Origin: an uncultured archaeon
Lineage (GTDB): Archaea > Asgardarchaeota > Heimdallarchaeia > Heimdallarchaeales > Heimdallarchaeaceae
Assembly: GCA_964534625.1 (NCBI GenBank)
Contig: CAZHRF010000036.1
Span: forward strand, 1 to 24,000
Reading direction: 5' to 3'
DNA length: 24,000 nt
Below the pieces are notes generated by a model, which saw nothing but the letters and a program-made list of their open reading frames with translations, did not search any database and was not told the DNA's origin. The translations under genes and the position numbers were made by a program. Below, piece after piece: positions 4,008 to 20,597 of this stretch. Position 1 is the first letter of the stretch, and every line of letters begins with the position of its first letter.

Positions 4008-4394
4008 TTAGAGAACACGCTTCTTCTCGTCTCCTTTCCGTTTAATTGTAATAGATGAAGGAATGCCTTCTATTTTTCTTTCTAATTTTTTAATACCGAG
4101 ACGAGAGACTTGTCTTCCCTCTAAATAGCCGATTTTAATCAAATATAATACATTTAAGAATATGGTCTCAGCTGTTTCATTTTTATTTTCATTTTCATAG
4201 AGTTGTTTCCAGTATTCAAAGGCATCGGGTGCCAAAAAGTATTGCATTAATTGAAATTTATCATCTACCGTAACACTTCTAGGCGCTTGTTCAGCTTCTT
4301 TTAAGTCCTCCATTCGCTTCTTTCTTTTGTCTGCCATTTCCATTAATTTTTGAGCTTTTTTCTTTCTTATTGCTTCTAATTCATCAGATGTCAT
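4008..4394 (-). CDS. PDCD5/TFAR19-like double-stranded DNA-binding protein family (small basic helical protein)
   Basis: 128-aa ORF. It has an N-terminal charged helix ('ELEAIRKKKAQKLME'), then a region 'LMQYFLAPDAFEYW...', a helical core and a C-terminal 'ITIKRKG'. This matches the layout of archaeal and eukaryotic PDCD5-family proteins as I recall it. By-eye only. Confidence 0.55.
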   Translation of the reverse strand: MTSDELEAIRKKKAQKLMEMADKRKKRMEDLKEAEQAPRSVTVDDKFQLMQYFLAPDAFEYWKQLYENENKNETAETIFLNVLYLIKIGYLEGRQVSRLGIKKLERKIEGIPSSITIKRKGDEKKRVL

Positions 4395-4677: not shown

Positions 4678-4911
4678 GTGAAGATATCAATTGTAACTGC
4701 TATCGGTGGAGGACTAATAGAACTAGATGCTGATCCTCATTCAACTGTAGCTCAATTAAAACGCGAAGTAGCAAGAATCAAGAAAATTCCAGCTAACACG
4801 GTCATTTTAGTTTTTCAAGGACATCAATTAGACGACAGTCAAATCCTTAAAGAAGCAGGCATTATGGATGGAGACAAACTCTATATTATTGCTAGAACGA
4901 AGGGAGGATAA
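4678..4911 (+). CDS. Ubiquitin-like beta-grasp protein ending in a free Gly-Gly (eukaryote-type ubiquitin homologue)
   Basis: 77-aa ORF with a GTG start preceded by GGTGAT (about 4667-4672). It aligns collinearly by eye with 76-aa eukaryotic ubiquitin ('IP' at 37-38, 'LVFQGHQLDD' vs 'LIFAGKQLED', C-terminus 'ARTKGG' vs 'LRLRGG'). The stop codon follows GG directly. Confidence 0.85.
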   Translation: MKISIVTAIGGGLIELDADPHSTVAQLKREVARIKKIPANTVILVFQGHQLDDSQILKEAGIMDGDKLYIIARTKGG

Positions 4912-4951: not shown

Positions 4952-5968
4952 ATGTCTGATGATAAATCTCATGATAAATATTCTAGACAAGAATTAATAC
5001 CAGGTTGGGATCAATCTGCTTTAATAAATGCAAATGTAATTATTGCTGGAGTTGGGGCAATAGGGAGTTATGTAGCTACCATACTGGCTTCTTCTGGTAT
5101 TGGAAAACTTATCCTCATTGATATGGATAAGATTGAACTATCCAATCTGAACAGACAACTTTTATTTCGAGAATCAGATCTTAAGAGTTTTAAAGCGGAA
5201 ATTGCAGCAAAAAGATTGAAAAATTTAAATCAAGATGTTGAAATAATTCATTATAATAAAAAAATGGAAAAAGTTCCTCTTAGAGTTTATGAAGAAGCTG
5301 ATGTGATAATTGGATGTCTAGACACATTCATTGGAAGGAGATGGATTAATTCAATGGCTGTTAGACTAAAAAAACCACTCATTTTAGGTGGTATGTTCTC
5401 CTTTTTAGGTGATGTTCAAGTTATTTTTCCTTATGACACCCCTTGTTTTGAATGCCAACCTTTGGTTCCAGATGAAGAATTAGCTCAAGCTTGTACTCCC
5501 TTTGGTGATGTGAGAAAAGATGAACGTGAAGAAGAGGAGGAAGAAGCCAAATTACCGGCAGTAGCTACCCTATCGTCCATTATTGGGGGATGGATGGCAC
5601 AAGAAACAATAAAAATACTTTTGGAAATTGGAAATCCAATCAATAATTATTTGTTTTATGATGGCTTAAATAATGCCTATACAATTGTCCCCCTAGCAAG
5701 AAACAAAAATTGTCCAGCGTGTGGTGAATTATACAATCTTGAACAAATAAAATTTATCACATCCAATAATGAAACTACAAGAGATTTACTAGTACGTTTA
5801 AGCTTGTCTTATGGTCTAGAAAAACCCGAGATTATGATAGATGGAATGATATTAGAACAAGAAAAAAAGATCTCGTCATATAATCTTTCTAATGAGAAAC
5901 TTGCCTTTGTATTAGATACTTCTTTAGCAAAACCAATCAAAGTAGTGTTAGAAATAGTAGACCAATGA
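4952..5968 (+). CDS. E1-like ubiquitin/UBL-activating enzyme (ThiF/MoeB/UBA adenylation domain) with extra C-terminal domain
   Basis: 338-aa ORF. Rossmann ATP-binding 'IAGVGAIGS', 'DMDKIELSNLNRQ', and zinc-site pairs 'CFEC' (C165/C168) and 'CPAC' (C254/C257). A lone Cys181 ('AQACTPFG') sits in the crossover-loop position. It lies immediately downstream of the ubiquitin gene. Confidence 0.85.
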   Translation: MSDDKSHDKYSRQELIPGWDQSALINANVIIAGVGAIGSYVATILASSGIGKLILIDMDKIELSNLNRQLLFRESDLKSFKAEIAAKRLKNLNQDVEIIHYNKKMEKVPLRVYEEADVIIGCLDTFIGRRWINSMAVRLKKPLILGGMFSFLGDVQVIFPYDTPCFECQPLVPDEELAQACTPFGDVRKDEREEEEEEAKLPAVATLSSIIGGWMAQETIKILLEIGNPINNYLFYDGLNNAYTIVPLARNKNCPACGELYNLEQIKFITSNNETTRDLLVRLSLSYGLEKPEIMIDGMILEQEKKISSYNLSNEKLAFVLDTSLAKPIKVVLEIVDQ

Positions 5969-6042: not shown

Positions 6043-7470
6043 GTGATTACAATTTCTCATGATTACATTCTTGCTACTGAGATGCAACTAATTTATAATA
6101 ATGCGGGAGGATTTGAACCCGTACAAGGCAATTTAAAACGTTGGAAAGGTCAGGTAGGTACAATACAGGGTACATCTATTCCCATTTATGCTGAAATTAA
6201 AATTCAACCAAATTTTCCTCATAGCCCACCGGTTGTTAATATTCAACCCAAGTTAACACATCCTAATGTTAATGAATATGATGTTCTTAAGATGAGGGTG
6301 CTATCTAATTGGAATCCTAGAACACACATATACGAGGTTATTAATGAGATTAAGGCTTTATTTTCTACAGTACCCGCTAAACCTCTAAAATTCAAGCTAA
6401 AAGATAGTCCGTATAAAGAACCATCAAAATTACCTAGAACAGAACAGTCTAAGGATATTCCGCAAAAATTTAAATCTAGAAGCCAAGAGGTACTATTTGA
6501 ACAAGAAGTCAAAACTGATCCGCAAGTGACGAGAATCAGAAAAAAAATCCAAGCATACCAAACAAGGATAGAACAAATAAATAAAGAAATTGAAAGAGAG
6601 AGAGCAACTTTACTTGAAAATGCAGGTGTGCAAGTGAACAAAGATCAAGAGATAGAAGCATCACTCAATGATTTATATCAAGCAGACGTGAATGCCACTA
6701 GCGATCTCATCGAGATCTTAGGGGAAAAATTTGAAGATGGTGACCTTTCTGATGTTGATTATCTTAAATTGCATAGAAAGTATACTGCAAGAGTCTTCAA
6801 AACAAAAAAACAACTACAATTTATGGAAAATGCTGGTGATAAAATGGATAATAGAGATGAAAGAAGATTAGATCTAGAAGCAGACCTTTTTGCAGCAATT
6901 GTAACTTTAGAAAAGATAACTAAAGGATACCAACAACACGAGATTGAACAAATTGCTTATAAAAAACAACTTAGAGCACTAATCAAAAACATATTCAAAT
7001 CGAGAATGAGACTAGAACAAATAGGCGGCTTCAAACTAGACGAGTTTATTGAAAGAGAACAAATGGATCAGAAATATTCATTAGGAGTTAGACAGTTACG
7101 CGTAGCAGAAGGAGTTGAAACACCAGATTCTATTTCCAATGTAGCTTTACCATTTGATTCCTTGAAAAGAATGCCAAGACAAACAGCAGACTTTGTTTCA
7201 TCAGCAATTGAATTAATAGACTTAACGAGATTAAAATCCGTTGCTAGGGCAGATTTAATATTAGCAGATCTAGATGAGTTGATACATATTACAGAGACGT
7301 TTCCAAGTATTCCGGATGACTTCTGGATAATCGATGACATGAAGGATTGGAGAAAAATAGTTTCAAATTATGATACACAAGAAGTATTGAAGGGAGAGGA
7401 TTGTGAGAAACTAGAATTTCAAACCTCTAGATGGCTAAATGAATTCAGAAGATTACTTAAGGATCTTTAA
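6043..7470 (+). CDS. ESCRT-I fusion protein: Cys-less UEV (Tsg101/Vps23-like E2 variant) + coiled-coil stalk + steadiness-box-like segment + complete Vps28
   Basis: 475-aa ORF with a GTG start.
- N-terminus: E2 fold signature 'PNFPHSPPVVNIQPKLTHPNV', but Lys83 sits where the catalytic Cys would be, and there is no Cys in the first 450 aa.
- aa 205-262: 'LGEKFEDGDLSDVDYLKLHRKYTARVFKTKKQL' resembles the TSG101 C-terminal steadiness box.
- aa 275-475: aligns with Vps28 along its whole length, e.g. 'ADFVSSAIELIDLTRLKSVARADLILADLDELIHITETFPSIPDDF' and the C-terminal 'WLNEFRRLL'. Confidence 0.8.
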   Translation: MITISHDYILATEMQLIYNNAGGFEPVQGNLKRWKGQVGTIQGTSIPIYAEIKIQPNFPHSPPVVNIQPKLTHPNVNEYDVLKMRVLSNWNPRTHIYEVINEIKALFSTVPAKPLKFKLKDSPYKEPSKLPRTEQSKDIPQKFKSRSQEVLFEQEVKTDPQVTRIRKKIQAYQTRIEQINKEIERERATLLENAGVQVNKDQEIEASLNDLYQADVNATSDLIEILGEKFEDGDLSDVDYLKLHRKYTARVFKTKKQLQFMENAGDKMDNRDERRLDLEADLFAAIVTLEKITKGYQQHEIEQIAYKKQLRALIKNIFKSRMRLEQIGGFKLDEFIEREQMDQKYSLGVRQLRVAEGVETPDSISNVALPFDSLKRMPRQTADFVSSAIELIDLTRLKSVARADLILADLDELIHITETFPSIPDDFWIIDDMKDWRKIVSNYDTQEVLKGEDCEKLEFQTSRWLNEFRRLLKDL

Positions 7471-7538: not shown

Positions 7539-7859
7539 TTGGGAGAATGTATTATGGCACACAATGTTTCATCAGAAGCAATCTATCAAGAGATAAGAGA
7601 AGCTATCCTTGAATTGATCAATCTGATTGAAATTGATATTGATGTATCATACGTATTAGAAGAATTGGAAGAAATAAGATTCAAAATCAGAAAGATTAAT
7701 GTAAAAAACGGATCCGTACCAGAAGAAATAAATCAGGTGTTTAATAAGCTATATGACAAATACAAAAATAAAATGTCAGCTCCACTCTCATCAAGAGATA
7801 AAAGAAAACTTATCGAAAATCTAAAAGAATGGCTAATAAAAGCGGGTTCAATGTTCTAA
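7539..7859 (+). CDS. Small all-helical hypothetical protein located between the ESCRT-I and ESCRT-II genes
   Basis: The ORF is 106 aa from TTG 7539. A more likely start is ATG 7554 ('MAHNVSS...'), preceded by tgggag. Heptad-like helical sequence with no recognisable motif. Its conserved-looking operon position is the only functional hint. Confidence 0.55.
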   Translation: MGECIMAHNVSSEAIYQEIREAILELINLIEIDIDVSYVLEELEEIRFKIRKINVKNGSVPEEINQVFNKLYDKYKNKMSAPLSSRDKRKLIENLKEWLIKAGSMF

Positions 7860-7959: not shown

Positions 7960-8682
7960 TTGGGATTAAGAGAAATAGAAAAAAAATTAAAAATCAAATC
8001 AGCTTTTCAGGTGAAAGAAGCAGAATTAATGATTAAAGAATTAGAGCAAATGATAGAAAACACTAAAGAAACGAAAAAACAACTGCAAAAATTTGAAAAG
8101 AAATATAGCGATAAAATAAAACAGAACAAAGATTATTATGAAAAATTAGAGGGGCTCAGAGAAGAGTTAGGATTACCAAAAGAGATTGGGAGATACGATT
8201 GGAGAGACGCTCCATCTATGAAAGACAAATTAACTGGTGGCGGATACTATGATAGATTGGCTAATGAAATTATTGATTTGGGTAAAGAGTTAACGAAACA
8301 AAATGGAGGGATTATGGCGATAAGTGAACTGTTCACACAAGTTAATAAAGCAAGACCAGGAAACGTAGTTTCAATTGATGACCTGTATAAAGGGTTAGAG
8401 AAGTTAATAAATGCCTCGTTAATCGCACCTTTCAAAATATTGGAATCAGGAGTAAAAATTGTTGAATTCACACCGGTTGAATTCTCTCAAGATCATAGTC
8501 TTGTTTTAAGTTATGCATCCAAAACGGGATATATAACAAGAGAAGAATTACTTATGCAAACAAATTGGACAGAGGAAAGAATTAATCGTTGCCTTGTTTT
8601 CTTTGAAGAAAATAATATAGCGATTAAAGACGACGATTATGAAGAAGGAACAAAGTATTGGTTCCCGGGACTGGGACAATAA
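7960..8682 (+). CDS. vps22: ESCRT-II EAP30-domain protein (Vps22/Vps36-like, tandem winged helix) with N-terminal coiled coil
   Basis: 240-aa ORF with a TTG start. 'NGGIMAISELFTQVNKARPGNVVSIDDLYKGLEKL...KIVEFTPVEFSQDHSLVLSYASKTGYITREELLMQTNWTEERINRCLVFFEENNIAIKDD...YWFPGL' is collinear with SNF8/Vps22 ('GGLITLEEL...', 'MDHTVVLQLAEKNGYVT...WETERARQVLEHLLKEGLAWLD...YWLPAL') as recalled. Confidence 0.85.
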   Translation: MGLREIEKKLKIKSAFQVKEAELMIKELEQMIENTKETKKQLQKFEKKYSDKIKQNKDYYEKLEGLREELGLPKEIGRYDWRDAPSMKDKLTGGGYYDRLANEIIDLGKELTKQNGGIMAISELFTQVNKARPGNVVSIDDLYKGLEKLINASLIAPFKILESGVKIVEFTPVEFSQDHSLVLSYASKTGYITREELLMQTNWTEERINRCLVFFEENNIAIKDDDYEEGTKYWFPGLGQ

Positions 8683-8720: not shown

Positions 8721-9518
8721 TTAGAAGACTTTTTCATCATCAAAACGCATGATAGTCTTTTCCCTATTCAACCAGTGAGCTACCCCTTTATTCACTAAAA
8801 TATCGACAACATCAATCAAATCCTCAGGAGGTAAAGTTGCCCATTCTTCATCAAATTGTGATAAATCAAAAAGTGAGTGGACTTCCACTACTCGACCAGT
8901 TTCCAACATGAAATTAAGCAAATCTTCAGCAAATTCAGCGTTTGTTTTCCACTTGATTCGGGCTCTAAGTTTAGTTGTTTCTTCCTTTTTTAGCCCAAAA
9001 ATCTTAGCTAACCACGCAAAAAACCCTCGTTTTTGTTCTTCATCCAACCAGGTTGCGTAGTCTTTCTCACCTAAGTAACCAACTAAGTTCCTCAGCTGTT
9101 CAATGGATAACTCTTTTCCTATTTCTTCATTCTTAAATGGGTAAACAGTACGTATTTTATTGATACTAATAATATGAATCACATATAATTTAGTATAATC
9201 AAGAAGAACCTTTGACCATTTATCAGACCATGAACCTATTTTATCTGTACTTTTGGGGGAAATATACATCCACGGTTTGTTCACCCATTTAGGTAACATG
9301 TCCTCGAACTCTTTTTCTAATTTAACTTGTTGATCCTTCTTAGTTAAAAGTCCAGTTTGAGACCTATCTATAGCTTTAGTAGTTTGTAATTCTTCTTCCG
9401 ATATTTCAATTCCTTTCAAACTGGCCTCAATTAATTTAAGTTTCTCCTCTGAAATCTTTTTTTCTTTCTTCAATTCTTCAAGATTCACATCTATTGATTC
9501 TTTTTCTAACGTTGCCAT
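8721..9518 (-). CDS. vps25: ESCRT-II Vps25-like protein (tandem winged helix) with ~80-aa N-terminal coiled-coil extension
   Basis: 265-aa ORF. aa 80-265 are collinear with Vps25 as recalled ('PWMYISP...SWSDKWSKVLLDY' vs 'WQYRFPPFFTLQPN...QLAAWCSLVLSF'; second WH 'LFDLSQFDEEWATLPPEDLIDVVDILVNKGVA'). A GAGGT motif lies 7 nt before the ATG. The gene starts 16 bp after the Vps4 stop. Confidence 0.75.
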   Translation of the reverse strand: MATLEKESIDVNLEELKKEKKISEEKLKLIEASLKGIEISEEELQTTKAIDRSQTGLLTKKDQQVKLEKEFEDMLPKWVNKPWMYISPKSTDKIGSWSDKWSKVLLDYTKLYVIHIISINKIRTVYPFKNEEIGKELSIEQLRNLVGYLGEKDYATWLDEEQKRGFFAWLAKIFGLKKEETTKLRARIKWKTNAEFAEDLLNFMLETGRVVEVHSLFDLSQFDEEWATLPPEDLIDVVDILVNKGVAHWLNREKTIMRFDDEKVF

Positions 9519-9534
9519 CCAATTACCTCATATA

Positions 9535-10683
9535 TTATGCTGAACCAAATTCGGCAGCCCAATCTAGATATTTATTAACTTCTCGCTCATTAACGGAAGG
9601 ATTAATATCCTGTATTGCTCCAATAAAATCACTCATGTTTACATCACGGGCTTGTACAGTTTCATCACCTAATGCACCAATACTGTCCAAATCACGGATT
9701 GGTTTCATAATAGCCTCTCTACATATCATAGCTATATCGGCACCAGAGTAGCCTTCAGTAATCTCTGCGAGCTTACCATAATCAACATCAGATTCCATGT
9801 TAACTTCACGGGTATTATACTTGAAAATACCTTCTCTAGCCTCCAGATCAGGTAAACCAATATAAATACGTCTTTCAAATCGTCTTCTAAATGCAGCATC
9901 AATACCTTCGGGAAAGTTAGTGGCGCCAAGAACAACTATACGGTCTTCGTCTTTACTACTTAAACCATCCATTGAAGTTAATAATTCGTTTTTTACACGT
10001 CGTAAAGCATCATGTTCGCTACCCCTAGAACCCGTCATAGCATCAACTTCATCAACAAATACAATGGAAGGTTGTCTTTCTCTTGCTATCTCGAAAAGCG
10101 TTTTTACTAACTTTTCTGATTCACCCAACCATTTTGACATCAAGGAAGATGCTGAAACATTGAAAAATGAGGCTTCTATCTCAGAGGCTGTTGCACGGGC
10201 TAGTAAAGTTTTACCACAACCAGGCGGACCAAATAATAGAATCCCTTTCCAAGGTCTGCGTGCTCCCCTAAACAAATCGGGTCGCATCAATGGAAGTACT
10301 ATGGCTTCACGTAAGGTTTGTTTTGCAACACTTAAGCCAGCAATGTCATTCATTTTAACATTTGGTTTTTCTGTTACAATAAGGTCATCAATTGCACTTG
10401 CTAATTTATCGTTATCAGAATCCGTTGCTCGTGCTTTGTTCCTTGAACGCTCTTTGATTTTTTCTCTCAATTCTTTTGCACGATCAACGTACATTTCAGC
10501 TTTTTTACGAAGCTGCTTTGCTACCTGGATATTACGTTCAAAACGGATAGCTTGTGTTAAGGCTTCAGCTGCTTCTAGATAATAAGCTACAGCCTCACTA
10601 TATTGTTGATCTTTATCTAAATTGTATGCTTTTTTAGCTTTCTTTGTTGCTTGCTCTATTATACCTCTAGCAGACACGTACAC
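9535..10683 (-). CDS. vps4: Vps4-type AAA+ ATPase (N-terminal MIT domain + single AAA cassette)
   Basis: 382-aa ORF. MIT-like three-helix N-terminus ('YSEAVAYYLEAAEAL...KAEMYVDRAKELREK'). 'RPWKGILLFGPPGCGKT' (Walker A), 'SIVFVDEVD' (Walker B), 'SKWLGESEKLVKTLF', 'RRRFERRIYIGLP', and a C-terminal helix 'YLDWAAEFG'. The start may be the second GTG (10677), which has GAGGTG 5 nt upstream. Confidence 0.93.
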   Translation of the reverse strand: MYVSARGIIEQATKKAKKAYNLDKDQQYSEAVAYYLEAAEALTQAIRFERNIQVAKQLRKKAEMYVDRAKELREKIKERSRNKARATDSDNDKLASAIDDLIVTEKPNVKMNDIAGLSVAKQTLREAIVLPLMRPDLFRGARRPWKGILLFGPPGCGKTLLARATASEIEASFFNVSASSLMSKWLGESEKLVKTLFEIARERQPSIVFVDEVDAMTGSRGSEHDALRRVKNELLTSMDGLSSKDEDRIVVLGATNFPEGIDAAFRRRFERRIYIGLPDLEAREGIFKYNTREVNMESDVDYGKLAEITEGYSGADIAMICREAIMKPIRDLDSIGALGDETVQARDVNMSDFIGAIQDINPSVNEREVNKYLDWAAEFGSA

Positions 10684-10902: not shown

Positions 10903-11568
10903 CTAATCATCCGATATTTCTTCTTTCAAAGCTTCTAATTCCGCCTCTAGATCCGATGTATCTTCAACTTGAGAACTTCTTGATTTACCTGTTGAAACAG
11001 AGGGTAATTCATCATCTATATCTATAGATGGAAGATCCCCAGTTGTTTCCATATCCAACTCTGCTTGAAGTTGATCTAATTCATCGTCAATAGATATATC
11101 AAAATCATCTTCGAAAGCACCCTCTGAGAAACTCGTATCACCTAAGATCTCTTGGGACATAGATAATCTATCTTGTTGCATAGCTGCTTTATCCATAACT
11201 TCTGCAACACGTTTTTCATCAATTTTTCCCATTTGTTGCTCTACAACGTTTGTCCCCGTCTCCATCGCCTTAACCGTTTCTGAGGTTGATTTAGCAGTAT
11301 CTATGCTCTCCATTTGTGTTTGGAGATTCATTATCATATTTTGAGCTTGATTGATTTTTTTTAGATAAATTCTTCTTCTTTGCATTGCAGAGCGTGCGCC
11401 ATTTTTATTTCCACTTTTAAGCATCTTTGCAGCGAGTACTTTTTGCTCATCAGAAAGTCGCTCATAATTACGAATATTACGTTCAAGCTTATTTATTTGA
11501 GCTTTTAACACGGAAAGGGCTTGAGCGTCATCTCGCCTTTTGTCACCAAATAACCATTTTTTGACCAT
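10903..11568 (-). CDS. ESCRT-III protein, Snf7/CHMP4 (Vps20/32/60) class
   Basis: 221-aa ORF. Snf7-family core ('AAKMLKSGNKNGARSAMQRRRIYLKKINQ', 'VKAMETGTNVVEQQMGKIDEKRVAEVMDKAAMQQD') is collinear with CHMP4/Snf7 as recalled. Acidic C-terminal tail. A GGTGAT motif lies 6 nt before the ATG. The gene starts 14 bp after the upstream paralogue. Confidence 0.85.
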   Translation of the reverse strand: MVKKWLFGDKRRDDAQALSVLKAQINKLERNIRNYERLSDEQKVLAAKMLKSGNKNGARSAMQRRRIYLKKINQAQNMIMNLQTQMESIDTAKSTSETVKAMETGTNVVEQQMGKIDEKRVAEVMDKAAMQQDRLSMSQEILGDTSFSEGAFEDDFDISIDDELDQLQAELDMETTGDLPSIDIDDELPSVSTGKSRSSQVEDTSDLEAELEALKEEISDD

Positions 11569-11582
11569 AATATATCACCATC

Positions 11583-12194
11583 TTACTCTTCTTTATCACG
11601 AAGTTTTTGTATTTCAGCTTCTAAATCATCAACTTCTGCACCTACTGTGGGTAATGTGGTACCTGTTGTTATACCCATCTCAACTGCAGTTTGTTCAATT
11701 AACCTATCGACTTCTGACTCATCAGTATCACTCACAAGCATATCATCAATACCATCCTCTATTGTTTCCGTACTTGTTTCTATATTGTCGATAGACATTT
11801 CCATGTCTTGAATAACGCGATCCAAATCAGGTATTTGCAGTTGTGCATTAGCCATTCTTAGGGCGTCAGCAACACCGTGCATTTCTTCAGCCATTGAAGC
11901 GGCTGAATCAGCACGCTCTAACTTGAATATGAGACCATTAATTCTAGAAACCAATTTTTGATATCCTAGTGACCACTTGCGGCTGCGAACGATATCTGTA
12001 CTATATAACCTTGCGGCTTCCATATCACCTCGTTCAATAGCTTTACGCATTTTTTGTTCCATCTTTCTTTCATCAGAATCGATTTTACGTTGTGCGCGTT
12101 CAAGTCGTCGGATAGTAAGCTTAAGATTCACAATATGTTCTCTAGGTGAACTACTACCTGACCCAAATAACCAGCCAAAGAATGAACTAAACAT
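11583..12194 (-). CDS. ESCRT-III protein, CHMP1/Did2 (Vps2/24/46) class
   Basis: 203-aa ORF. 'RKAIERGDMEAARLYSTDIVRSRKW' vs CHMP1B 'KKAIQKGNMEVARIHAENAIRQKNQ'. C-terminal 'DDLEAEIQKLRDKEE' vs CHMP1B 'DELSQRLARLRDQV' (MIM1). The N-terminal 'MFSSFFGWLFG' resembles yeast Snf7 'MWSSLFGW'. Confidence 0.85.
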   Translation of the reverse strand: MFSSFFGWLFGSGSSSPREHIVNLKLTIRRLERAQRKIDSDERKMEQKMRKAIERGDMEAARLYSTDIVRSRKWSLGYQKLVSRINGLIFKLERADSAASMAEEMHGVADALRMANAQLQIPDLDRVIQDMEMSIDNIETSTETIEDGIDDMLVSDTDESEVDRLIEQTAVEMGITTGTTLPTVGAEVDDLEAEIQKLRDKEE

Positions 12195-12514: not shown

Positions 12515-12883
12515 ATGACAGAAGACAAACCAATTATTCATCCACCATTATCTATGAAGACAAAGAGCTTGAAAGAATTAGCAAAAGTTATCCTATCTGG
12601 AGCCAATCCGCAGAGAGGAGCAGGATATCTAAATTATATCGTGCTTGAGAATAAAACTATATATTTCACAATGCATATGGGAATGGGGTACTATAATCTT
12701 CGTTCTTTGCCAATAATTCTTTGGACTGAGGAAGAAAAACCTCCAACAGGTGGATTTTTGAGATATAGAACATCACCAAAAGAAGAATTGGTGTTTGCCA
12801 CAGATGGTTCTGATCCAAAGTGGGCAACTCTACCCTTAGTAGAATATGAAGAAATTCCAGAAGAATTCAAAGTGTTCGAGTAA
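12515..12883 (+). CDS. Hypothetical protein (122 aa), no recognisable family
   Basis: ORF with a GAGGT motif 8 nt before the ATG. Non-repetitive composition and an acidic C-terminus. Divergently transcribed from the ESCRT-III operon. I recognise no motif. Confidence 0.5.
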   Translation: MTEDKPIIHPPLSMKTKSLKELAKVILSGANPQRGAGYLNYIVLENKTIYFTMHMGMGYYNLRSLPIILWTEEEKPPTGGFLRYRTSPKEELVFATDGSDPKWATLPLVEYEEIPEEFKVFE

Positions 12884-13103: not shown

Positions 13104-14411
13104 TTAATCTCTTATAGCCTTTTTTCCATCACGTAAAAATTGTGTGAAATTAATTCTTGAAGGACATACATAAGAACACAATCCACATTCAATACAGACC
13201 TCAACATGGAGTTTTCTTAACATATTTACATCATCTTTTTTTGCTGCATCCATTATCAGTTGAGGATAGATATCTACTGGACATACGATATTACAATATG
13301 AACAACGTATACATGGCAAGGAATTCTCATAGGGGTCATGTTCTTCTGCTTGAAAAGCTGTTACTGCAGAAGTAGCTTTTAGAACAGGATATGAGGCATC
13401 ATCTATAGTTGGTCCCATCATAATTGAACCTAAAACTATTCTATTAAATTTTGTCGGAGATAATTTTAGATAATCAAGGATATGATTAACGGGTGTTCCC
13501 ATGCGTACCCACAAATTCTTCCCTTTTGTCTCTTTAGAATAGAAGGTAATACCCCGTGAGACTAGTGTTTCACCATTATATACTGCATCCCAAACTGCAT
13601 AAGCTGTTGCAATGTTATGTACGATTATTCCAATATCAGGCGCATATTGACCTGCTGGAACTTCAATGCCTAAAATTTCTTTTATTAAGAGTTTTTCACT
13701 TCCAACAGAATAATTGGGACGAATACGTTCAATAAGTATATCGTTGTCTCTCAAAAGTGCTTCAAACTCTGGTGTTGTACCTTCCTTTGTTCGTGTAGCA
13801 AAAATAATTTGATCCACGTCAAGCATTTTACCCATCAGTTTTATACCTTTTATTAGTTCCTTAGATTTTTCAACCATCAAACGGAAGTCACAAGCAATAT
13901 TTGGATCGCTTTCTTTGGCATTTATAATCAAGCAAGAAATAGCTTTTGATCCAAGTTTTACATGACTAGGGAATGAAGCACCACCAAGCCCAACTATTCC
14001 CGCTTCCTTAACGCGCTCAATTAATTGCGCTCTTGTTGCATTTTTGGGATCTAGAGGGTCTAAAGCACGCTTTTTTTCTTCATTTTCTGTTTTTATCACT
14101 ATTGCAATTTCATCATTTCCAGAAATAGGATTTTTTATTTCTTTTTTTTCGACTATTTTACCATTAACAGGACTATGAACTGGAGTACAAAGTGCATTTT
14201 CATCATCAATATCACCAATTTTTTGACCATACTTTACACGATCTCCAACTTTTACTAATGGTTCAGCTTTTTTTCCGATATGCTGACTTAAGAACACAAT
14301 CATGTGTTCAGCAGGAGGTACTTCCGTAAATGGGTCATCGACGGCCGTTTTTTTCATATCGATGTTCATCTCAAAACGACCTTTTTCCTTGAAATGTTGC
14401 ATACTAAGCAC
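13104..14411 (-). CDS. rnfC: RnfC-like electron-transfer subunit (RnfC_N barrel-sandwich + NADH/FMN-binding 51K-like + SLBB + 2x[4Fe-4S])
   Basis: 435-aa ORF. 'GIVGLGGASFPSHVKL' (GxGGAxFP), and two ferredoxin motifs 'CIRCSYCNIVCP' and 'CIECGLCSYVCP'. The most probable start is ATG 14402 ('MQHFKEK'), because AAGGAGGTG lies 6 nt upstream of it. Confidence 0.8.
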   Translation of the reverse strand: MLSMQHFKEKGRFEMNIDMKKTAVDDPFTEVPPAEHMIVFLSQHIGKKAEPLVKVGDRVKYGQKIGDIDDENALCTPVHSPVNGKIVEKKEIKNPISGNDEIAIVIKTENEEKKRALDPLDPKNATRAQLIERVKEAGIVGLGGASFPSHVKLGSKAISCLIINAKESDPNIACDFRLMVEKSKELIKGIKLMGKMLDVDQIIFATRTKEGTTPEFEALLRDNDILIERIRPNYSVGSEKLLIKEILGIEVPAGQYAPDIGIIVHNIATAYAVWDAVYNGETLVSRGITFYSKETKGKNLWVRMGTPVNHILDYLKLSPTKFNRIVLGSIMMGPTIDDASYPVLKATSAVTAFQAEEHDPYENSLPCIRCSYCNIVCPVDIYPQLIMDAAKKDDVNMLRKLHVEVCIECGLCSYVCPSRINFTQFLRDGKKAIRD

Positions 14412-15441
14412 CTCCTTTTGATATTACATGTCCGTAAGGTCTTTTCATAATAATTTTATCCAGATATGGGGTTAGTGCATTTAACGCCACAAGTGCAATA
14501 ATTGATCCTCCAAGTACATTTAGAAGTTGTAAAAAGAAAGTCAAAATTGCAAGGGATATACCGAATATATATTGTGATAGTTCAGGCATAGGTGTCGATT
14601 GGGGTTCAGTAGCCATAAAAAAGACCATGAAGATAACACTGCCAGTAAAGACATGAAATGCAATTCTTAAAATGATATCTCCTTGGAATAAACCCATAAT
14701 AAGAGCTAAACCAGTCATTGTCAATAGAGAACTTACTATGATTCTCCATTTGTACCTTAACCAATATGCTGCGATTGATCCTACAATAAGTACTAAGATA
14801 CCACAAGCTCCACCTATCCACCCGTGAGTTTGCCAAAAGAAAAGACTCTGGGCAGCGGACAAATCTTGTCCAAATAGACTTTCACGTTGGAATATCCACA
14901 TTGAAGCATTAAATCCTTCTGAAGTCCATAGGTTTAGATCTAAATGATGGGGATGAAATATCATACCAAGTTTTAGAGGCTCATCCAAAAAGAATAGTAT
15001 CGATAAGACAACCAGAGCTAACACTTTGGCAGCTGCAGCAGGATTCAGATATTTTCTTTCAAAATACTTACCTTGTCCATATTTGAACAAGAGAATAGTT
15101 AATAAGGCAACACCAGCTGTAGTGTAAAAAGGGGAAGCGATTGGCATACATAAACCAACTATCATTCCTGCCACAAGAGGGGACATTGGGGTTTCATAGG
15201 TGGGAGAAATGTTTTTCATTTTCTGGTATGAATAGATTAGACTATGAACAATCAATACCGTTCCTAAAGCGATGATTATATGAACAAATGCATCGACACC
15301 CATAATTATAATTGAAACTACTGCAATTATGGACAACATTAAAAATGTCTTCAGCATTAATTCATCTTTGGTAAATCCAATATGAATATGAGGGGGATTT
15401 ACATCTTTATAATTTACTGTTTTAGATTCTTCTGGGTTCAT
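14404..15441 (-). CDS. rnfD: RnfD/NqrB-family polytopic membrane protein (divergent)
   Basis: 345-aa hydrophobic ORF. 'YLNPAAAAKVLALVV', 'GWIGGACGILVLIVGSIAAYWLRYKWRI', 'FFMATEPQSTP' (cf. FFMATDPVTSP) and 'ALVALNALTPYLDK' appear in the order of RnfD/NqrB family signatures. Confidence 0.75.
   Translation of the reverse strand: MNPEESKTVNYKDVNPPHIHIGFTKDELMLKTFLMLSIIAVVSIIIMGVDAFVHIIIALGTVLIVHSLIYSYQKMKNISPTYETPMSPLVAGMIVGLCMPIASPFYTTAGVALLTILLFKYGQGKYFERKYLNPAAAAKVLALVVLSILFFLDEPLKLGMIFHPHHLDLNLWTSEGFNASMWIFQRESLFGQDLSAAQSLFFWQTHGWIGGACGILVLIVGSIAAYWLRYKWRIIVSSLLTMTGLALIMGLFQGDIILRIAFHVFTGSVIFMVFFMATEPQSTPMPELSQYIFGISLAILTFFLQLLNVLGGSIIALVALNALTPYLDKIIMKRPYGHVISKGGA
14409..14417 (-). promoter_or_regulatory. 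Strong Shine-Dalgarno (AAGGAGGTG) for rnfC embedded in the last codons of rnfD
   Basis: The reverse complement of 14409-14417 reads aaggaggtg. The rnfD stop (TAG, 14404-14406) is 1 nt from ATG 14402. This is a classic translational-coupling arrangement. Confidence 0.6.
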
Positions 15442-16086: not shown

Positions 16087-17496
16087 TCATAAATTGTTAT
16101 TAAAATATGATTCAAATTCTTGATTACTCAATATTCTATTCAATTCAGTATCTAATCTACTCTGTTCCATCATCAAACTACGTAATAGTTCATTCATTTT
16201 TCTAGTATTCCCTATTGTTTTTCTTCTTTGAATTAAGGACATTATTCTCCGTCTATTTTCTAAAAGTTTAGCTCTTAAATTATCGATAATTACTCGTTTA
16301 CTGTCTTTTCTTCTAATTTCAGTTCTCACTTCTCGTTTGTTTAACAAATAACCTTTTAAGAACTCCATATGTTCTTCATTGTTACGTTTCAAAAGATTAA
16401 TTGGTACAGTTTGATCCCGTATTTTTTCTATAATCTTTATGTTACTTATATTATAGTCGATATAATTATTTTTAATTTCAAAATACGTAGGAAGTTCATT
16501 AATTACTTTTTTTCTTCCAATCAACTTGTATATATCAGTATTTGTACGGAATTGTAACATTTCACCAAAAAAGAAAGACTCTTCCTTTGTTGGAGAAGTG
16601 AAAGAGAACAAACTAACAACACGGTCTAGTTTGATTCTAACATTGAAAAGTCCTTTCTCCCTTAAGAAATACAGATTATTGGTGGTAAAAACTAAGGTAT
16701 ACTTTTTAATTAAACCATTATTAATCCTCACATTAATTCTAGGAATGATAGCAATCAGTTCTTCTTGGGTTGAAGGTAATACTCTATGTATCTTTTTTAG
16801 TAAAGACCAATGATAGATAATATAATCAGTCTTTTTTTCAACCTTTTTGAATTCAAGTTCAAGATTATTAATTGATTTATTGATATTTTGTTTTAAATTG
16901 TCAAACCGAGTATCAAGAGCAGAAAGTAATTCTTCTGTAATCTCTATATGTTTAAGACTGACAAATCGCAAATAGTTCACAGATTCCAGTCGCTTCTTGA
17001 TCATAGAAAAAGCTTCTGAATCAAATTTTCGTAAGTGGTCAATGAATTCACTAATTTTTACCTGTAAAATAGTCAATTCTTGCTCTATCTCAGGAAATAG
17101 TTTGAGTTTGGCTTGTCGTCCTAGATGAACAATTTTAACTAGGTTATTGAATCTGTCAGTTAGATTCCTGATCGGCCCATAATACTCATATAAGCGGTCA
17201 TAACTTTTGTAAATCCTACTTGGAAGACTCTCATGATATGATTCGCCATCTTCAACGGTAGGACTACCACACATCTTACAAAACTTTAGTGCCATATATT
17301 TGGTGTGGTGTATATTGGTTTTACATTTATTACATATAGGTTCATTAGACTCTCTTTTGCAGTTATAGCAATAATAATTAACACTCCGTGTATAAACATG
17401 TTCTTTACAGAGAATGTTTTTACAAGATGTACAATAATATTTAGCTTGTAGAGAACAATAATTACAGTTAACAACCATGGGCATGAGAACCACCAA
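16087..17496 (-). CDS. Cys-rich (B-box-like zinc finger + zinc ribbons) coiled-coil protein with central beta-rich module
   Basis: The ORF is 469 aa from TTG 17496. ATG 17484 ('MPMVVNCNYC') is more likely, with a GGTGG motif 7 nt upstream. Ligand spacing is C-x2-C-x7-C-x2-C-x4-C-x2-H, followed by three more CxxC pairs. Long heptad regions at aa ~100-235 and ~385-460. A beta-rich segment lies at aa ~245-345. Confidence 0.6.
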   Translation of the reverse strand: MVVLMPMVVNCNYCSLQAKYYCTSCKNILCKEHVYTRSVNYYCYNCKRESNEPICNKCKTNIHHTKYMALKFCKMCGSPTVEDGESYHESLPSRIYKSYDRLYEYYGPIRNLTDRFNNLVKIVHLGRQAKLKLFPEIEQELTILQVKISEFIDHLRKFDSEAFSMIKKRLESVNYLRFVSLKHIEITEELLSALDTRFDNLKQNINKSINNLELEFKKVEKKTDYIIYHWSLLKKIHRVLPSTQEELIAIIPRINVRINNGLIKKYTLVFTTNNLYFLREKGLFNVRIKLDRVVSLFSFTSPTKEESFFFGEMLQFRTNTDIYKLIGRKKVINELPTYFEIKNNYIDYNISNIKIIEKIRDQTVPINLLKRNNEEHMEFLKGYLLNKREVRTEIRRKDSKRVIIDNLRAKLLENRRRIMSLIQRRKTIGNTRKMNELLRSLMMEQSRLDTELNRILSNQEFESYFNNNL

Positions 17497-17967: not shown

Positions 17968-19107
17968 ATGATTGAAAAAAAACCTACTCCAACTATGTTC
18001 ATTCTTCATGCTTATCAACCAGTTACACAAGAAAAAAAGGTATTCCAACGTATAATTGAAAATTGTTATGTACCTTTCTTTAAAAGGTTAAGAGAAAATA
18101 AAAACGCAAAAATTGTTTTAAATATTACTGGTTGTTTAATTGAACGACTAGTCAAAGAGAATGCGAAGGTTATTGAATTAATACAAGCCAATATTCAAAG
18201 TGGACAAATTGACTTGATGGGGTCAGCTTTTTATCATCCTATTTTACCCTTCCTATCCCCCAAAGAAATCCAATATCAGATACAAAAACAGACAAATATA
18301 ATACGTAAAGAATTCAATTATGACCCTCAAATATTCTTTCCGCCTGAATTAGCAATTAGCCCGGACATTATTGAATCAATAATAGATGAAGGATTCAAAG
18401 CAATTATTGGTCCAACCAATAGTCACCAATTTACATTCAGAGGCTTATATGAAACATTAGAAAAAAACATCATTATTTTAAATAGGGAAAAAAATATCAG
18501 CAATGGTATTTCTTTTAACGGATACAAGGGTCAAATTGAATCTGTTATTTATGATATTAGAAGTTCTTTTGAGCAACACCAATACCCAGTCATCATAGCC
18601 ATGGACTTGGAAACATATGGAGAACACATCCCCAATTATTATCAATTTTTTTATAGATTAGCTTCAAAACTTTTAACCATCACACACAAAGAATTATTAG
18701 AGCAATTTTCAGTTAAAAAAACCATCAACAATTTGATCCCTTCTTCTTGGTCGACTTCAGTAGATGATTTGAAGCAGGGGATATACTTTCCCTTGTGGGA
18801 TCATCCAGATAATAGCATACATCAATTACAACACTTACATACTTCACTCTTAGATTATTGTATTGAACACGTTTCTGTTGATGAGAGCACATATGACAAG
18901 TATCAAGCATCAAAATATTCATGTCAATATTGGTGGGCGTCAGGACATTGGTGGAGTAAAAAACTAATTAGGTTAGGTTTAGACTACCAAAAAGATGTTT
19001 TAAGCTTGATTTCCCCTCACTTGCCCTCAAATACAAAGCAAGCAGTTATAAAGCAATCTGAAAATATTATTAGACGTATTGACAGAATATTAGATATTAA
19101 GAAGTGA
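17968..19107 (+). CDS. Glycoside hydrolase family 57 protein (alpha-glucan active)
   Basis: 379-aa ORF. GH57 conserved regions in order: 'LHAYQP', 'GQIDLMGSAFYHPILPFL', 'FFPPELAIS' (nucleophile Glu region), 'AMDLETYGEH' (acid/base Asp region) and 'CQYWWASGHWW'. A GAGGT motif lies 7 nt before the ATG. Confidence 0.8.
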   Translation: MIEKKPTPTMFILHAYQPVTQEKKVFQRIIENCYVPFFKRLRENKNAKIVLNITGCLIERLVKENAKVIELIQANIQSGQIDLMGSAFYHPILPFLSPKEIQYQIQKQTNIIRKEFNYDPQIFFPPELAISPDIIESIIDEGFKAIIGPTNSHQFTFRGLYETLEKNIIILNREKNISNGISFNGYKGQIESVIYDIRSSFEQHQYPVIIAMDLETYGEHIPNYYQFFYRLASKLLTITHKELLEQFSVKKTINNLIPSSWSTSVDDLKQGIYFPLWDHPDNSIHQLQHLHTSLLDYCIEHVSVDESTYDKYQASKYSCQYWWASGHWWSKKLIRLGLDYQKDVLSLISPHLPSNTKQAVIKQSENIIRRIDRILDIKK

Positions 19108-19113
19108 GAGATT

Positions 19114-20574
19114 ATGAAGGTTGTATTTTGTTCTGCTGAGGTCTTCCCGTTTTCAAAAACTGGGGGATTAGCAGATGTATCCAATTCTATCCCAAAAGAA
19201 ATAAGCAAGTTAGGACATGATGTAGTTATTATTACTCCATTATACAAATTTATTAACCTAGAAGATTACTCCATTGAGTTAAAAAATGAACACTTGTATA
19301 CATTTATCGGAGACTTCAGAGAAACATTTGCTTTATATGAATCTATTTTACCTGATAGTGATGTAAGAGTTTACTTTGTTAGACATCCATATTTATACAG
19401 AGACGGAATTTACACAGATAATGATGATGAAGAGTATCCCGACAATGCAATGAGATTTTTATTTTTTAGCAAAGTTATATTTGCTGTTTTAGAGTATCTC
19501 TCTTTTTCACCAGATATAATCCACGTTAATGATTGGCATACTGGTCTTGTTCCCTTTTTTCATAAAACGGAGTTTATAAAAAAGTATTATTTTAAAGACA
19601 CAAAAACAGTTTTCACTATTCATAACATAGGGTATCAAGGGAGTTATGCTTTTGATAAAATCAGTCGTGCTGATATTCCGGACAAATATTTTACTGAAGA
19701 CTTTATTGTTCATTATGATTTAGCCAATTTTATGAAGACAGGCATAGTCTTTGCAGATATAGTTACAACAGTTAGTCAACAATATAGTATAGAGATAGGC
19801 ACTAAAGAATATGGACATGGATTGGAAGGTTCAATTCAAAAACGTAAGAACGATTTATATGGCATTGTACATGGTATTGATTACTCACAATGGGATCCTA
19901 AAACAGATCCATATATTGAAACTAATTATGATCATACAGAATTAAAAGGCAAAAAGGAATGTAAGAGGGCGTTACAACAAGAATTGGGCCTTGAACAAAC
20001 AGATAAGCCACTATTAGGCATTGTTTCTCGTCTCGCTTATCAGAAAGGTCTAGATTTGGTACTCGAAAAATTTGATGAAATACTTGGATTAGGTGTCCAA
20101 CTAGTCTTATTAGGGACAGGAGATAAGCAACTTGAAAAACAATTTAAAGAAAAACAAAAAGAATATCCACATAACTGTTCTATAAACATCACTTTCAACA
20201 ACGAACTAGCTCACAAAATTGAAGCAGGAGTAGATCTATTTTTAATGCCCTCACGTTATGAACCATGTGGATTAAACCAAATGTATTCAATGATTTATGG
20301 TACTATCCCTATTGTCAGAAAGACTGGTGGTTTGGCGGATACAGTTCAAGAGTACAATTTGAAAAAGCAAACAGGAAATGGTTTTATATTTGAAAATTAT
20401 GATCCCGATGAATTTTTGGATGCAATTAAACGAGCTGTCCAGCTTTATAAAAACAGACCTAAGTTGTGGAAATCTCTTGTCAAAAAAGTAATGCAAATTG
20501 ATTTTGCATGGAAAAAAGTTGCAAAAGAATGGGAGAGAATATACAAAAAAGTTCATTCTTTGTGTAATATGTAA
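19114..20574 (+). CDS. glgA: Glycogen/starch synthase (GT5)
   Basis: 486-aa ORF. N-terminal 'SAEVFPFSKTGGLADV' and C-terminal 'MPSRYEPCGLNQMYSMIYGTIPIVRKTGGLADTV' signatures. It starts 6 nt after the GH57 stop. Confidence 0.92.
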   Translation: MKVVFCSAEVFPFSKTGGLADVSNSIPKEISKLGHDVVIITPLYKFINLEDYSIELKNEHLYTFIGDFRETFALYESILPDSDVRVYFVRHPYLYRDGIYTDNDDEEYPDNAMRFLFFSKVIFAVLEYLSFSPDIIHVNDWHTGLVPFFHKTEFIKKYYFKDTKTVFTIHNIGYQGSYAFDKISRADIPDKYFTEDFIVHYDLANFMKTGIVFADIVTTVSQQYSIEIGTKEYGHGLEGSIQKRKNDLYGIVHGIDYSQWDPKTDPYIETNYDHTELKGKKECKRALQQELGLEQTDKPLLGIVSRLAYQKGLDLVLEKFDEILGLGVQLVLLGTGDKQLEKQFKEKQKEYPHNCSINITFNNELAHKIEAGVDLFLMPSRYEPCGLNQMYSMIYGTIPIVRKTGGLADTVQEYNLKKQTGNGFIFENYDPDEFLDAIKRAVQLYKNRPKLWKSLVKKVMQIDFAWKKVAKEWERIYKKVHSLCNM

Positions 20575-20597
20575 AGTTCATTCTTTGTGTAATATGT
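20548..20597. repeat. Perfect 25-bp tandem direct duplication (aaagttcattctttgtgtaatatgt x2) at the convergent glgA / GH13 gene ends
   Basis: Read directly: 20548-20572 is identical to 20573-20597. The glgA stop codon TAA (20572-20574) spans the copy junction. The GH13 stop (reverse complement of 20578-20580) lies in copy 2. Confidence 0.9.

Follow-up and report, generated by a model that had tools for sequence, protein, structure and literature searches.

A single open reading frame at positions 6043-7470, on the forward strand, codes in one chain for both a Vps23-like ubiquitin receptor and a complete Vps28. The stretch of DNA analysed (hereafter the window) comprises 24,000 nucleotides from an uncultured archaeon of the Heimdallarchaeaceae. 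The gene, taken from the list of open reading frames, begins with GTG, and in its 475-aa product five parts follow one another: a UEV domain devoid of cysteine, a linker predicted to be disordered, a helix resembling the stalk, a hairpin assigned as a Vps23-type steadiness box and, last, a Vps28 of full length. In the family alignment, the N-terminus specified by the GTG start lines up with the start methionine of the orthologues. That one reading frame carries the parts of both subunits had been proposed in an earlier note, made from the sequence alone, and this is borne out by Pfam, by an AF2 model, by Foldseek and by the family alignment. We consider it very likely that the gene codes for a Heimdallarchaeaceae single-chain ESCRT-I, orthologous to HeimAB125_14070, which arose through loss of the stop codon between neighbouring genes for a Vps23 homologue and Vps28. 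The fused architecture itself was published in 2022, and the 475-aa gene is an additional orthologue of a known protein.

Could the fusion be an artefact, with separate vps23-like and vps28 genes merged by a frameshift or by a mistake in sequencing or assembly? In other Asgard lineages the split neighbours are only +11, -17 or +20 nt apart, so close that a single-base error could mimic a fusion. However, exactly the same 475-aa protein is called on six contigs, more than 40 protein clusters of 456-489 aa have the fused form (one relative being 93% identical), and 26 species-level genomes have a fused gene, two of these genomes being closed chromosomes (CP084166 and CP084167). Moreover, the seam region is aligned without gap or stop in every one of the 29 family members over which alignment and family-level Pfam counts were taken. 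Given this occurrence across contigs, genomes and closed chromosomes, together with the continuous alignment, we reject an artefactual origin, the chance of which we regard as negligible. Across the same family, UQ_con and VPS28 are each matched in 29/29 members, UEV in 28/29 and Vps23_core in 27/29; HMM domain parsing of the orthologues thus agrees with the proposed domain content, VPS28 being above cut-off and Vps23_core sub-threshold in the window protein itself.

The Vps23-like half

Residues 1-116 (positions 6043-6390, forward strand) make up the UEV domain, as judged from Pfam (UQ_con and UEV), alignment to E2 structures, AF2 and Foldseek. UQ_con is matched at E=2.3e-10 (40.7 bits; cut-off 27) and UEV at E=0.0043, below its cut-off. 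Residues 1-115 are confidently folded in the AF2 model and the region matches E2 structures in Foldseek with a probability of 1.00, UEV folds being matched as well, so the UEV fold previously claimed for these residues stands. The domain is a UBC fold in which the HPN motif is kept (H73-P74-N75). This, the higher score of UQ_con relative to UEV, and the fact that several orthologues are named 'ubiquitin-conjugating enzyme E2' or 'ubiquitin-protein ligase' in sources that include NCBI, would be compatible with an active E2 tethered to Vps28 instead of a ubiquitin-binding UEV. We consider an active enzyme highly improbable, as the translation has no cysteine anywhere in aa 1-116 and, in alignment to E2 structures, the column of the catalytic cysteine, some eight residues past HPN in E2s, holds Lys83, with Ser there in most orthologues. 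An N-terminal UBC fold without the catalytic cysteine is a feature of Vps23/TSG101, and Hatano et al. concluded likewise for HeimAB125_14070, which bound ubiquitin non-covalently (PMC9192718). By analogy with this orthologue, we infer that the N-terminal domain is a catalytically dead UEV that binds ubiquitin.

The UEV domain is followed by a low-complexity linker (aa 117-158; positions 6391-6516, forward strand), which is predicted by AF2 to be disordered (pLDDT <50) and is variable and poorly conserved in the family alignment; inspection by eye revealed no P[ST]xP motif within it. Next comes a charged, stalk-like helix (aa 160-193; positions 6520-6621, forward strand), which is predicted in both AF2 models and corresponds to helix 11-44 of the truncated one. 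A coiled coil had been suggested at aa ~150-205; a helix is indeed predicted within that span, though aa 117-158, immediately before it, are disordered in the model. The order of flexible linker and coiled-coil stalk is, by prediction, that of Vps23/TSG101.

The last element of this half is a hairpin assigned as a Vps23-type steadiness box (aa 208-264; positions 6664-6834, forward strand), with its two helices predicted by AF2 at aa 208-229 and 238-264. In the window protein, Vps23_core (PF09454) reaches 14.8 bits at aa 214-255 (E=0.028; cut-off 26.8), and the best match in the family has E=2.7e-09. Comparison by hhalign shows that the hairpin is homologous to the Vps28-type hairpin that follows it (probability 95%, E=2.6e-08). 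The earlier note had compared this segment with the TSG101 steadiness box. This pairwise likeness was not recovered: PDB searches with the segment alone and with its family profile yielded no chain of TSG101 or Vps23, and the likeness is therefore not used as evidence here. Assignment as a steadiness box is nevertheless supported by the Vps23_core matches in the family, the predicted hairpin, the homology to Vps28-N, and colinearity with split UEV-Vps23 genes.

An alternative is that aa 208-264 are a generic or duplicated Vps28-N-like hairpin, in which case the protein would be better described as a 'UEV plus an extended Vps28'. The lack of a PDB sequence match to Vps23/TSG101, the clear homology to the adjoining hairpin and the sub-threshold Vps23_core score can all be read in this way, but we consider it unlikely. 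Vps23_core recurs in nearly all orthologues, as counted above, and lineages with split genes encode the equivalent of aa 4-262 separately, as a UEV-coiled-coil-hairpin protein with the architecture of Vps23, one such protein having a Vps23_core match of its own. The steadiness-box hairpins of Vps23, Vps28 and Vps37 are in any case regarded as homologous (PMC10936438, the supplementary tables of which do not include the AB_125 accessions), so the distinction between a Vps23 hairpin and a Vps28-N hairpin is largely one of naming.

The Vps28 half and the origin of the fusion

Both halves of Vps28 had been claimed, and both are present. In the N-terminal core (positions 6850-7110, forward strand), a headpiece hairpin (aa 270-327) is followed by short helices as far as aa 356, and the C-terminal four-helix bundle spans aa 377-475 (positions 7171-7467, forward strand). 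At aa 280-472 the protein matches the Pfam VPS28 profile almost from end to end (profile positions 2-188 of 188), with 46.2 bits against a cut-off of 24.5. Searched against the PDB, the family profile matches yeast Vps28-N in 2F66, 2F6M, 2P22 and 2CAZ (E=0.004-0.006) and also the Xenopus Vps28 C-terminal domain (2J9W); the latter is matched by the C-terminal bundle with phmmer (E=0.0044) and with Foldseek (TM 0.84, rmsd 1.4 A, 28% identity). For the N-terminal core, Foldseek gives TM-scores of 0.72-0.78 to ~100-residue chains of 6VME and 0.69 to 2F6M_D. Two AF2 models were used, one full-length and one without the UEV (pLDDT 75 and 80.5, respectively), in which the expected helices are present. 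With the full-length model, all Foldseek matches fell on the UEV domain; the helical parts were matched with the UEV-less model, with good TM-scores and rmsd but weak E-values (0.03-1.3). In eukaryotes, the C-terminal bundle of Vps28 is the module that binds ESCRT-II.

A survey of orthologues for split and fused forms finds both. Alongside the fused genes already described, adjacent genes in the same order, at the distances given above, occur in Baldrarchaeum (GCA_016840465.1) and in another Heimdallarchaeota genome (GCA_011364945.1), supporting the suggestion that this is a Rosetta-stone fusion of two interacting partners. The split Vps23-like protein (252-256 aa) aligns to aa 4-262 of the fusion, and the split Vps28 (202-215 aa) to aa 271-475, with 28-39% identity between the split proteins and the corresponding halves. 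Because the split forms are neighbours in the same order, sequence comparison indicates that the fusion joined two adjacent genes at aa 262-271 (positions 6826-6855, forward strand).

Closer inspection of this seam reveals a putative relic of the second gene. Met268 (ATG at 6844-6846) is invariant in the family alignment within an otherwise variable linker, and ATG is found at this position in 22 of 22 unique loci, eight codons before the motif LxLEADLF in 21 of them and five in the other (L009). The spacing is similar to that in split Vps28 genes, where the start methionine is 7-16 residues ahead of LxLEADLF. In the window, the codon is preceded by GGTGAT-AAA, in which GGTGAT is a 6-nt Shine-Dalgarno match equal to those at the ubiquitin and Snf7 starts; among 163 internal in-frame ATGs, just 6 have a match of even 5 nt. 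We suggest that the Met268 ATG is the fossil start codon of the ancestral vps28, possibly still in use.

If it is in use, the locus would be functionally bicistronic, giving a free 208-aa Vps28 in addition to the fusion, and the complex would then be more than a plain single-chain ESCRT-I. Besides the conservation, spacing and quality of the upstream motif, this reading draws on the closed Heimdallarchaeum genomes, which have GGAGGA-N6-ATG at the site. However, about half of the family has GGTGAC abutting the ATG with a spacing of only 1 nt, while in others the motif is absent (GGTAGT); the G-rich string is explicable by Gly/Ser linker codons; and shared ancestry among the sequences makes the conservation counts non-independent. 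We therefore regard internal initiation as rather doubtful, with some chance of being correct, and it is compatible with, rather than exclusive of, the origin by gene fusion that we favour.

The gene neighbourhood and a possible pathway

The fusion gene is located in a cluster that runs from ubiquitin and its E1 through ESCRT-I and ESCRT-II to Vps4 and ESCRT-III. Upstream, on the forward strand, are genes for a 77-aa ubiquitin with Gly-Gly directly before the stop codon (4678-4911; Pfam ubiquitin, E=4.7e-13) and for an E1-like activating enzyme of the ThiF family (4952-5968; E=1.4e-60). Downstream, also on the forward strand, are a gene for a 101-aa helical protein (7554-7859) and, 490 nt beyond the fusion gene, vps22, coding for a Vps22-like ESCRT-II subunit (7960-8682; EAP30, E=3e-22). 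These are followed on the reverse strand by genes for a Vps25-like ESCRT-II subunit (8721-9518; Pfam ESCRT-II, E=2.8e-13), a Vps4 ATPase with MIT, AAA and Vps4_C domains in Pfam (9535-10683), and two ESCRT-III proteins of the Snf7 family (10903-11568 and 11583-12194; E=7e-21 and 1e-21). Gene order and orientation are the same in AB_125 and in at least 25 other genomes; across the other Heimdallarchaeaceae loci the arrangement is largely kept, two of them being rearranged.

The 101-aa reading frame (product P0108), an orthologue of HeimAB125_14060, is conserved in every locus, with the fusion gene (or vps28) on one side and vps22 on the other. With broader profiles, hhalign, run alongside shuffled and reversed controls, matches it to the Vps28 C-terminal domain (probability 73%, P=3e-05); a narrow profile of the small reading frame gave no match to segments of the fusion. 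Scattered sub-threshold Pfam and PDB matches to GPAT_N, YtzH, MnmE_helical and eIF3a were taken as noise. On the basis of the profile match, the protein is probably a stand-alone Vps28-C-terminal-domain-like protein, and as a candidate additional subunit it could be included in reconstitution. The main text of Hatano et al. (2022) does not mention it.

Together, these genes suggest a pathway. The dead UEV would bind ubiquitin on cargo, the ubiquitin being encoded ~1.1 kb upstream beside its E1. The tandem paralogous hairpins (aa 208-264 and 270-327) would form the ESCRT-I headpiece, either inside a single chain or by a swap between chains, with the protein self-associating, and the C-terminal four-helix bundle would recruit the Vps22/Vps25 ESCRT-II encoded immediately downstream. 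ESCRT-II would in turn nucleate the two ESCRT-III proteins, to be recycled by Vps4, all from the one cluster.

Comparison with known ESCRT-I systems

The closest characterised relative is HeimAB125_14070 (OLS31938.1) of Ca. Heimdallarchaeota archaeon AB_125, described as a 'UEV-Vps23-Vps28 fusion' with ubiquitin binding and Vps22 interaction (PMC9192718); the name 'UEV-Vps28' is also used, the UEV of UEV-Vps28 having been tested by SPR (bioRxiv 10.1101/2023.07.25.550441). This orthologue has been purified, and ubiquitin binding through its UEV has been reported by crosslinking, yeast two-hybrid and SPR (PMC9192718; bioRxiv 10.1101/2023.07.25.550441). It interacts with Vps22 in yeast two-hybrid, and it dimerises according to the summary figure of Hatano et al. 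(PMC9192718). The window protein is 51% identical to it with 99% coverage (aa 5-475; E=1e-169, or E=8.6e-144 in a database search), is colinear over this length, and shares its Pfam content and gene neighbourhood. The two nevertheless belong to different species, differ at the position of the catalytic cysteine (Lys in the window protein, Ser in AB_125), and have linkers (aa 117-158) that are not conserved. At this level of identity we infer that the window protein behaves likewise, ubiquitin and Vps22 binding being carried over from the AB_125 orthologue; the headpiece geometry is likewise a hypothetical one. Among GTDB representatives, identity to the window protein is at most 53%, and the 93% identical relative, the closest, is from a read-archive assembly.

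A fused ESCRT-I indicates that the partnership of Vps23 and Vps28 predates eukaryotes, and so bears on eukaryogenesis; it also offers a simplified system in which ubiquitin recognition is coupled to recruitment of ESCRT-II and ESCRT-III. The AB_125 orthologue has previously served to make both points and, in part, to test them. What is added here is a divergent orthologue in a complete and compact cluster, an origin for the fusion (adjacent genes, a seam at aa 262-271 and a putative fossil start codon), and a candidate additional subunit, the 101-aa protein.

The eukaryotic ESCRT-I core consists of Vps23/TSG101, Vps28 and Vps37 (plus Mvb12/MVB12/UBAP1), as represented by structures 2F66, 2F6M, 2P22, 2CAZ, 6VME and 2J9W. 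Common to this complex and the window protein are the UEV receptor, both Vps28 domains and, as predicted for the window protein, the stalk helix and the steadiness-box hairpins, but in the window protein two of the subunits are joined in a single chain; the window gene cluster has no homologue of Vps37 or Mvb12. The partner complex also differs, in that ESCRT-II in the archaeal cluster is without Vps36, and the Vps28 C-terminal domain would therefore need a contact other than the GLUE or zinc-finger domain of Vps36, be it a homodimer of Vps22 or a different factor.

Split Asgard ESCRT-I, as found in Ca. Odinarchaeum LCB_4 (Hatano et al. 2022), Baldrarchaeum and the Heimdallarchaeota genome GCA_011364945.1, has the same domains in the same order, and the split loci of Baldrarchaeum and GCA_011364945.1 share the downstream small reading frame and vps22. 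The Odinarchaeota complex has a dimer of Vps23 to one Vps28 (PMC9192718), a 2:1 ratio that is out of reach of a 1:1 covalent fusion without a supply of free Vps28 or some other hairpin donor. A live start at Met268, together with the 101-aa Vps28-C-terminal-domain-like protein, would lead to a ratio different from 1:1, for instance two UEV chains per free Vps28 module; judging from the sequence features described above, we think this improbable. Were it true, the assembly would be similar both to the Odinarchaeota complex of a Vps23 dimer with Vps28 and to the headpiece of eukaryotes with its three hairpins.

Gene content and order of the ubiquitin-ESCRT cluster

The window, with a GC content of about 33%, contains a complete Asgard-type ubiquitin-ESCRT cluster. 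On the forward strand, genes for ubiquitin (4678-4911) and a ThiF-type E1 (4952-5968) are followed by the 475-aa fusion ORF (6043-7470), a 101-aa small ORF (7554-7859) and Vps22/EAP30 (7960-8682); Vps25 (8721-9518), Vps4 (9535-10683) and two Snf7/ESCRT-III genes (10903-12194) lie on the reverse strand. The ubiquitin is encoded in mature form, with a C-terminal Gly-Gly and without an extension needing processing, and a Pfam scan of window ORFs of at least 90 aa found no Cys-bearing E2, RING E3 or JAB deubiquitinase.

Adjoining the ubiquitin gene, 4008-4394 (reverse strand) encodes a 128-aa protein that Pfam does not recognise directly. Nearly all Heimdallarchaeaceae loci have it, with 60-71% identity, and it shares 37% identity (E=1e-13) with a 128-aa PF01984 (dsDNA_bind, PDCD5-like) gene of Baldrarchaeum that flanks that genome's ESCRT cluster; a PDCD5-like gene is therefore a recurrent neighbour of Asgard ubiquitin-ESCRT clusters. 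After the ESCRT-III genes comes a 122-aa ORF (12515-12883, forward strand) which, like the 469-aa ORF at 16087-17496 (reverse strand), has no Pfam match; AB_125 (Candidatus Heimdallarchaeota archaeon AB_125) carries a 123-aa gene, also without Pfam match, at a similar position. The metabolic flanking genes (13104-15441, reverse strand, and 17968-23955), which encode RnfC/RnfD-like subunits, a double zinc-ribbon protein, GH57, glycogen/starch synthase and a 1125-aa alpha-amylase-family protein, are unrelated to the ESCRT cluster.

Domain structure of the fusion protein

An earlier note read the fusion ORF as Vps23 (UEV, stalk and steadiness box) joined to the whole of Vps28; that observation is confirmed and its interpretation supported. 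Pfam VPS28 matches over its full length (aa 280-472, profile 2-188 of 188; 46.2 bits, cut-off 24.5) and UQ_con matches aa 50-116 (40.7 bits, cut-off 27), with sub-threshold matches to UEV (E=0.0043) and, at aa 214-255, to Vps23_core (14.8 bits, cut-off 26.8). When 29 aligned orthologues were scanned separately, UQ_con and VPS28 were found in all 29, UEV in 28 and Vps23_core in 27 (best E=2.7e-09), so the weak matches are real at family level. In alignments to E2 crystal structures the catalytic-Cys column holds Lys83 in the fusion and Ser in most orthologues, and the translation has no cysteine in residues 1-116. The N-terminal domain is a UEV rather than an active E2 enzyme.

Two AlphaFold2 models were built, one of the whole chain from the family alignment (pLDDT 75) and one without the UEV (pLDDT 80.5). 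The models place a UEV at aa 1-115, as had been claimed, then a disordered linker (aa 117-158) and a helix (aa 160-193), where a coiled coil had been proposed for aa ~150-205. A first hairpin (aa 208-229/238-264) and a second (aa 270-297/303-327) are separated by a five-residue turn; short helices up to aa 356 and a linker lead to a four-helix bundle (aa 377-474). Among known structures, the model without the UEV resembles Xenopus Vps28-CTD 2J9W (TM 0.84, 1.4 A, 28% identity), yeast Vps28-N (2F6M_D) and ~100-residue chains of the human ESCRT-I headpiece entry 6VME (TM 0.72-0.78, 1.4-2.7 A); with the UEV-less family profile, four ESCRT-I core structures are also found through their yeast Vps28-N (E=0.004-0.006). 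By hhalign the first and second hairpins are homologues (probability 95%, E=2.6e-08), as would be expected of steadiness-box-type hairpins. The assignment of the first hairpin as a likely steadiness box draws on the family Vps23_core matches, the modelled hairpin, its homology to the second hairpin and the colinearity with split UEV-Vps23-like genes; the likeness to TSG101 put forward in the earlier note was not recovered in PDB searches with the segment and with its family profile, which yielded no TSG101 or Vps23.

Origin of the fusion and its seam

The fusion is real. An identical 475-aa protein is called on six contigs, the closest relative is 93% identical, and the same architecture occurs in more than 40 protein clusters of 456-489 aa. 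When one genome was searched for each species, 28 loci emerged, nearly all labelled Heimdallarchaeota. The whole protein was matched in one piece at 26 (Ca. Heimdallarchaeum aukensis and H. endolithica among them, both with closed chromosomes), and the two partial matches are interrupted by contig ends. In all 29 aligned orthologues the seam is continuous, with no gap or stop. Together these results dispose of an assembly or frameshift artefact. Gene order in the window is identical to that of AB_125, and across all retrieved loci it is the same with few rearrangements. In the closed Ca. Heimdallarchaeum genomes (L005, L006) the ubiquitin-E1-PDCD5-like block is inverted and moved between vps22 and vps25; because the trio of fusion, small ORF and vps22 remains intact despite this relocation, the arrangement suggests that the trio is a selected unit.

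Split forms also exist. The most distant homologues of the small ORF sit in clusters where ESCRT-I is encoded by separate genes without change of order. A UEV-Vps23-like gene of 252-256 aa stands first and vps28, with 202-215 aa, second; the small ORF and vps22 follow, and the ESCRT-I genes are spaced by +11, -17 or +20 nt. One such genome is a Baldrarchaeum, another is labelled Heimdallarchaeota. The split UEV-Vps23-like proteins are colinear with fusion aa 4-262 (E=1e-30 to 1e-33) and the split Vps28 proteins with aa 271-475 (E=1e-36 to 4e-48); the fused gene thus arose by joining two neighbouring genes end to end, its seam lying at aa 262-271 (6826-6855), a textbook Rosetta-stone event, as had been proposed.

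Within the seam, Met268 (6844-6846) is invariant in an otherwise variable Gly/Ser-rich linker. Every one of the 22 unique DNA sequences has ATG here, eight codons before an LxLEADLF motif in 21 of them (five in locus L009), similar to the 7-16 residues that separate stand-alone Vps28 start methionines from the motif. We read Met268 as a putative fossil vps28 start. Initiation might alternatively continue there: besides the conserved, start-like placement of the ATG, it is preceded in the window by a Shine-Dalgarno-like GGTGAT-AAA, the ubiquitin and Snf7 genes likewise have GGTGAT ahead of their starts, no more than 6 of 163 internal in-frame ATGs show a match of even 5 nt at suitable distance, and in the closed Heimdallarchaeum genomes the site reads GGAGGA-N6-ATG. 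However, in many orthologues GGTGAC abuts the ATG or the motif is absent, and Gly codons can explain the G-richness. We consider continued internal initiation unlikely, and favour the fossil start.

The small ORF and the proposed ESCRT-I function

The small ORF, starting at the ATG at 7554, gives a 101-aa product identical to P0108 and is orthologous to HeimAB125_14060, a protein on which Hatano et al. (PMC9192718) are silent in their main text. The ORF is conserved and helical, and always lies between the fusion (or vps28) and vps22, in L002-L032 and in the split-form clusters L033 and L035-L037. Its family is very narrow, a sensitive profile search of 1.84 billion proteins yielding only 15 representatives, and it has no consistent match to Pfam or PDB sequences. 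In broad profiles it lines up over its whole length with the Vps28 C-terminal domain (hhalign: 97 columns, probability 73%, P=3e-05, score 33.2), against scores of at most 16.9 for reversed profiles, 23.6 for 120 shuffled profiles and 20.4 for all other fusion segments. It is probably a diverged, stand-alone four-helix bundle resembling this domain, consistent with the remark that some Asgard genomes encode a Vps28 C-terminal domain separately besides full vps28 (Makarova et al. 2024, PMC10936438), and could plausibly serve as an extra ESCRT-I/II adaptor.

The fused architecture is already known: the AB_125 orthologue HeimAB125_14070 (P0034, OLS31938.1) is 51% identical over 99% of the length (E=1e-169), and Hatano et al. 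described it in 2022 as a UEV-Vps23-Vps28 fusion and modelled its parts on 1UZX, 6VME and 2J9U (PMC9192718). What is added here is the seam with its putative fossil start and the Vps28-CTD-like neighbour. HeimAB125_14070 binds cognate ubiquitin via its UEV domain (crosslinking and yeast two-hybrid), is reported to interact with Vps22 and is stated to dimerise (PMC9192718); ubiquitin binding has been quantified by SPR (bioRxiv 10.1101/2023.07.25.550441). By analogy, the fusion most likely has the same function: the UEV would capture ubiquitinated cargo, the tandem hairpins would build the headpiece and the Vps28-CTD would recruit Vps22/Vps25 ESCRT-II, with ESCRT-III and Vps4 acting next.

The eukaryotic headpiece comprises three hairpins, from Vps23, Vps28 and Vps37 (PMC10936438); the fusion chain contributes two. 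A second fusion copy in a dimer could supply the missing one, as could another cluster product or, as models led Hatano et al. to propose (PMC9192718), the stalk helix. Where ESCRT-I is split, Vps28 is reported to compete with the UEV for the Vps23 domain, relieving autoinhibition (bioRxiv 10.1101/2023.07.25.550441); covalent attachment of Vps28 could keep the fused form open constitutively.
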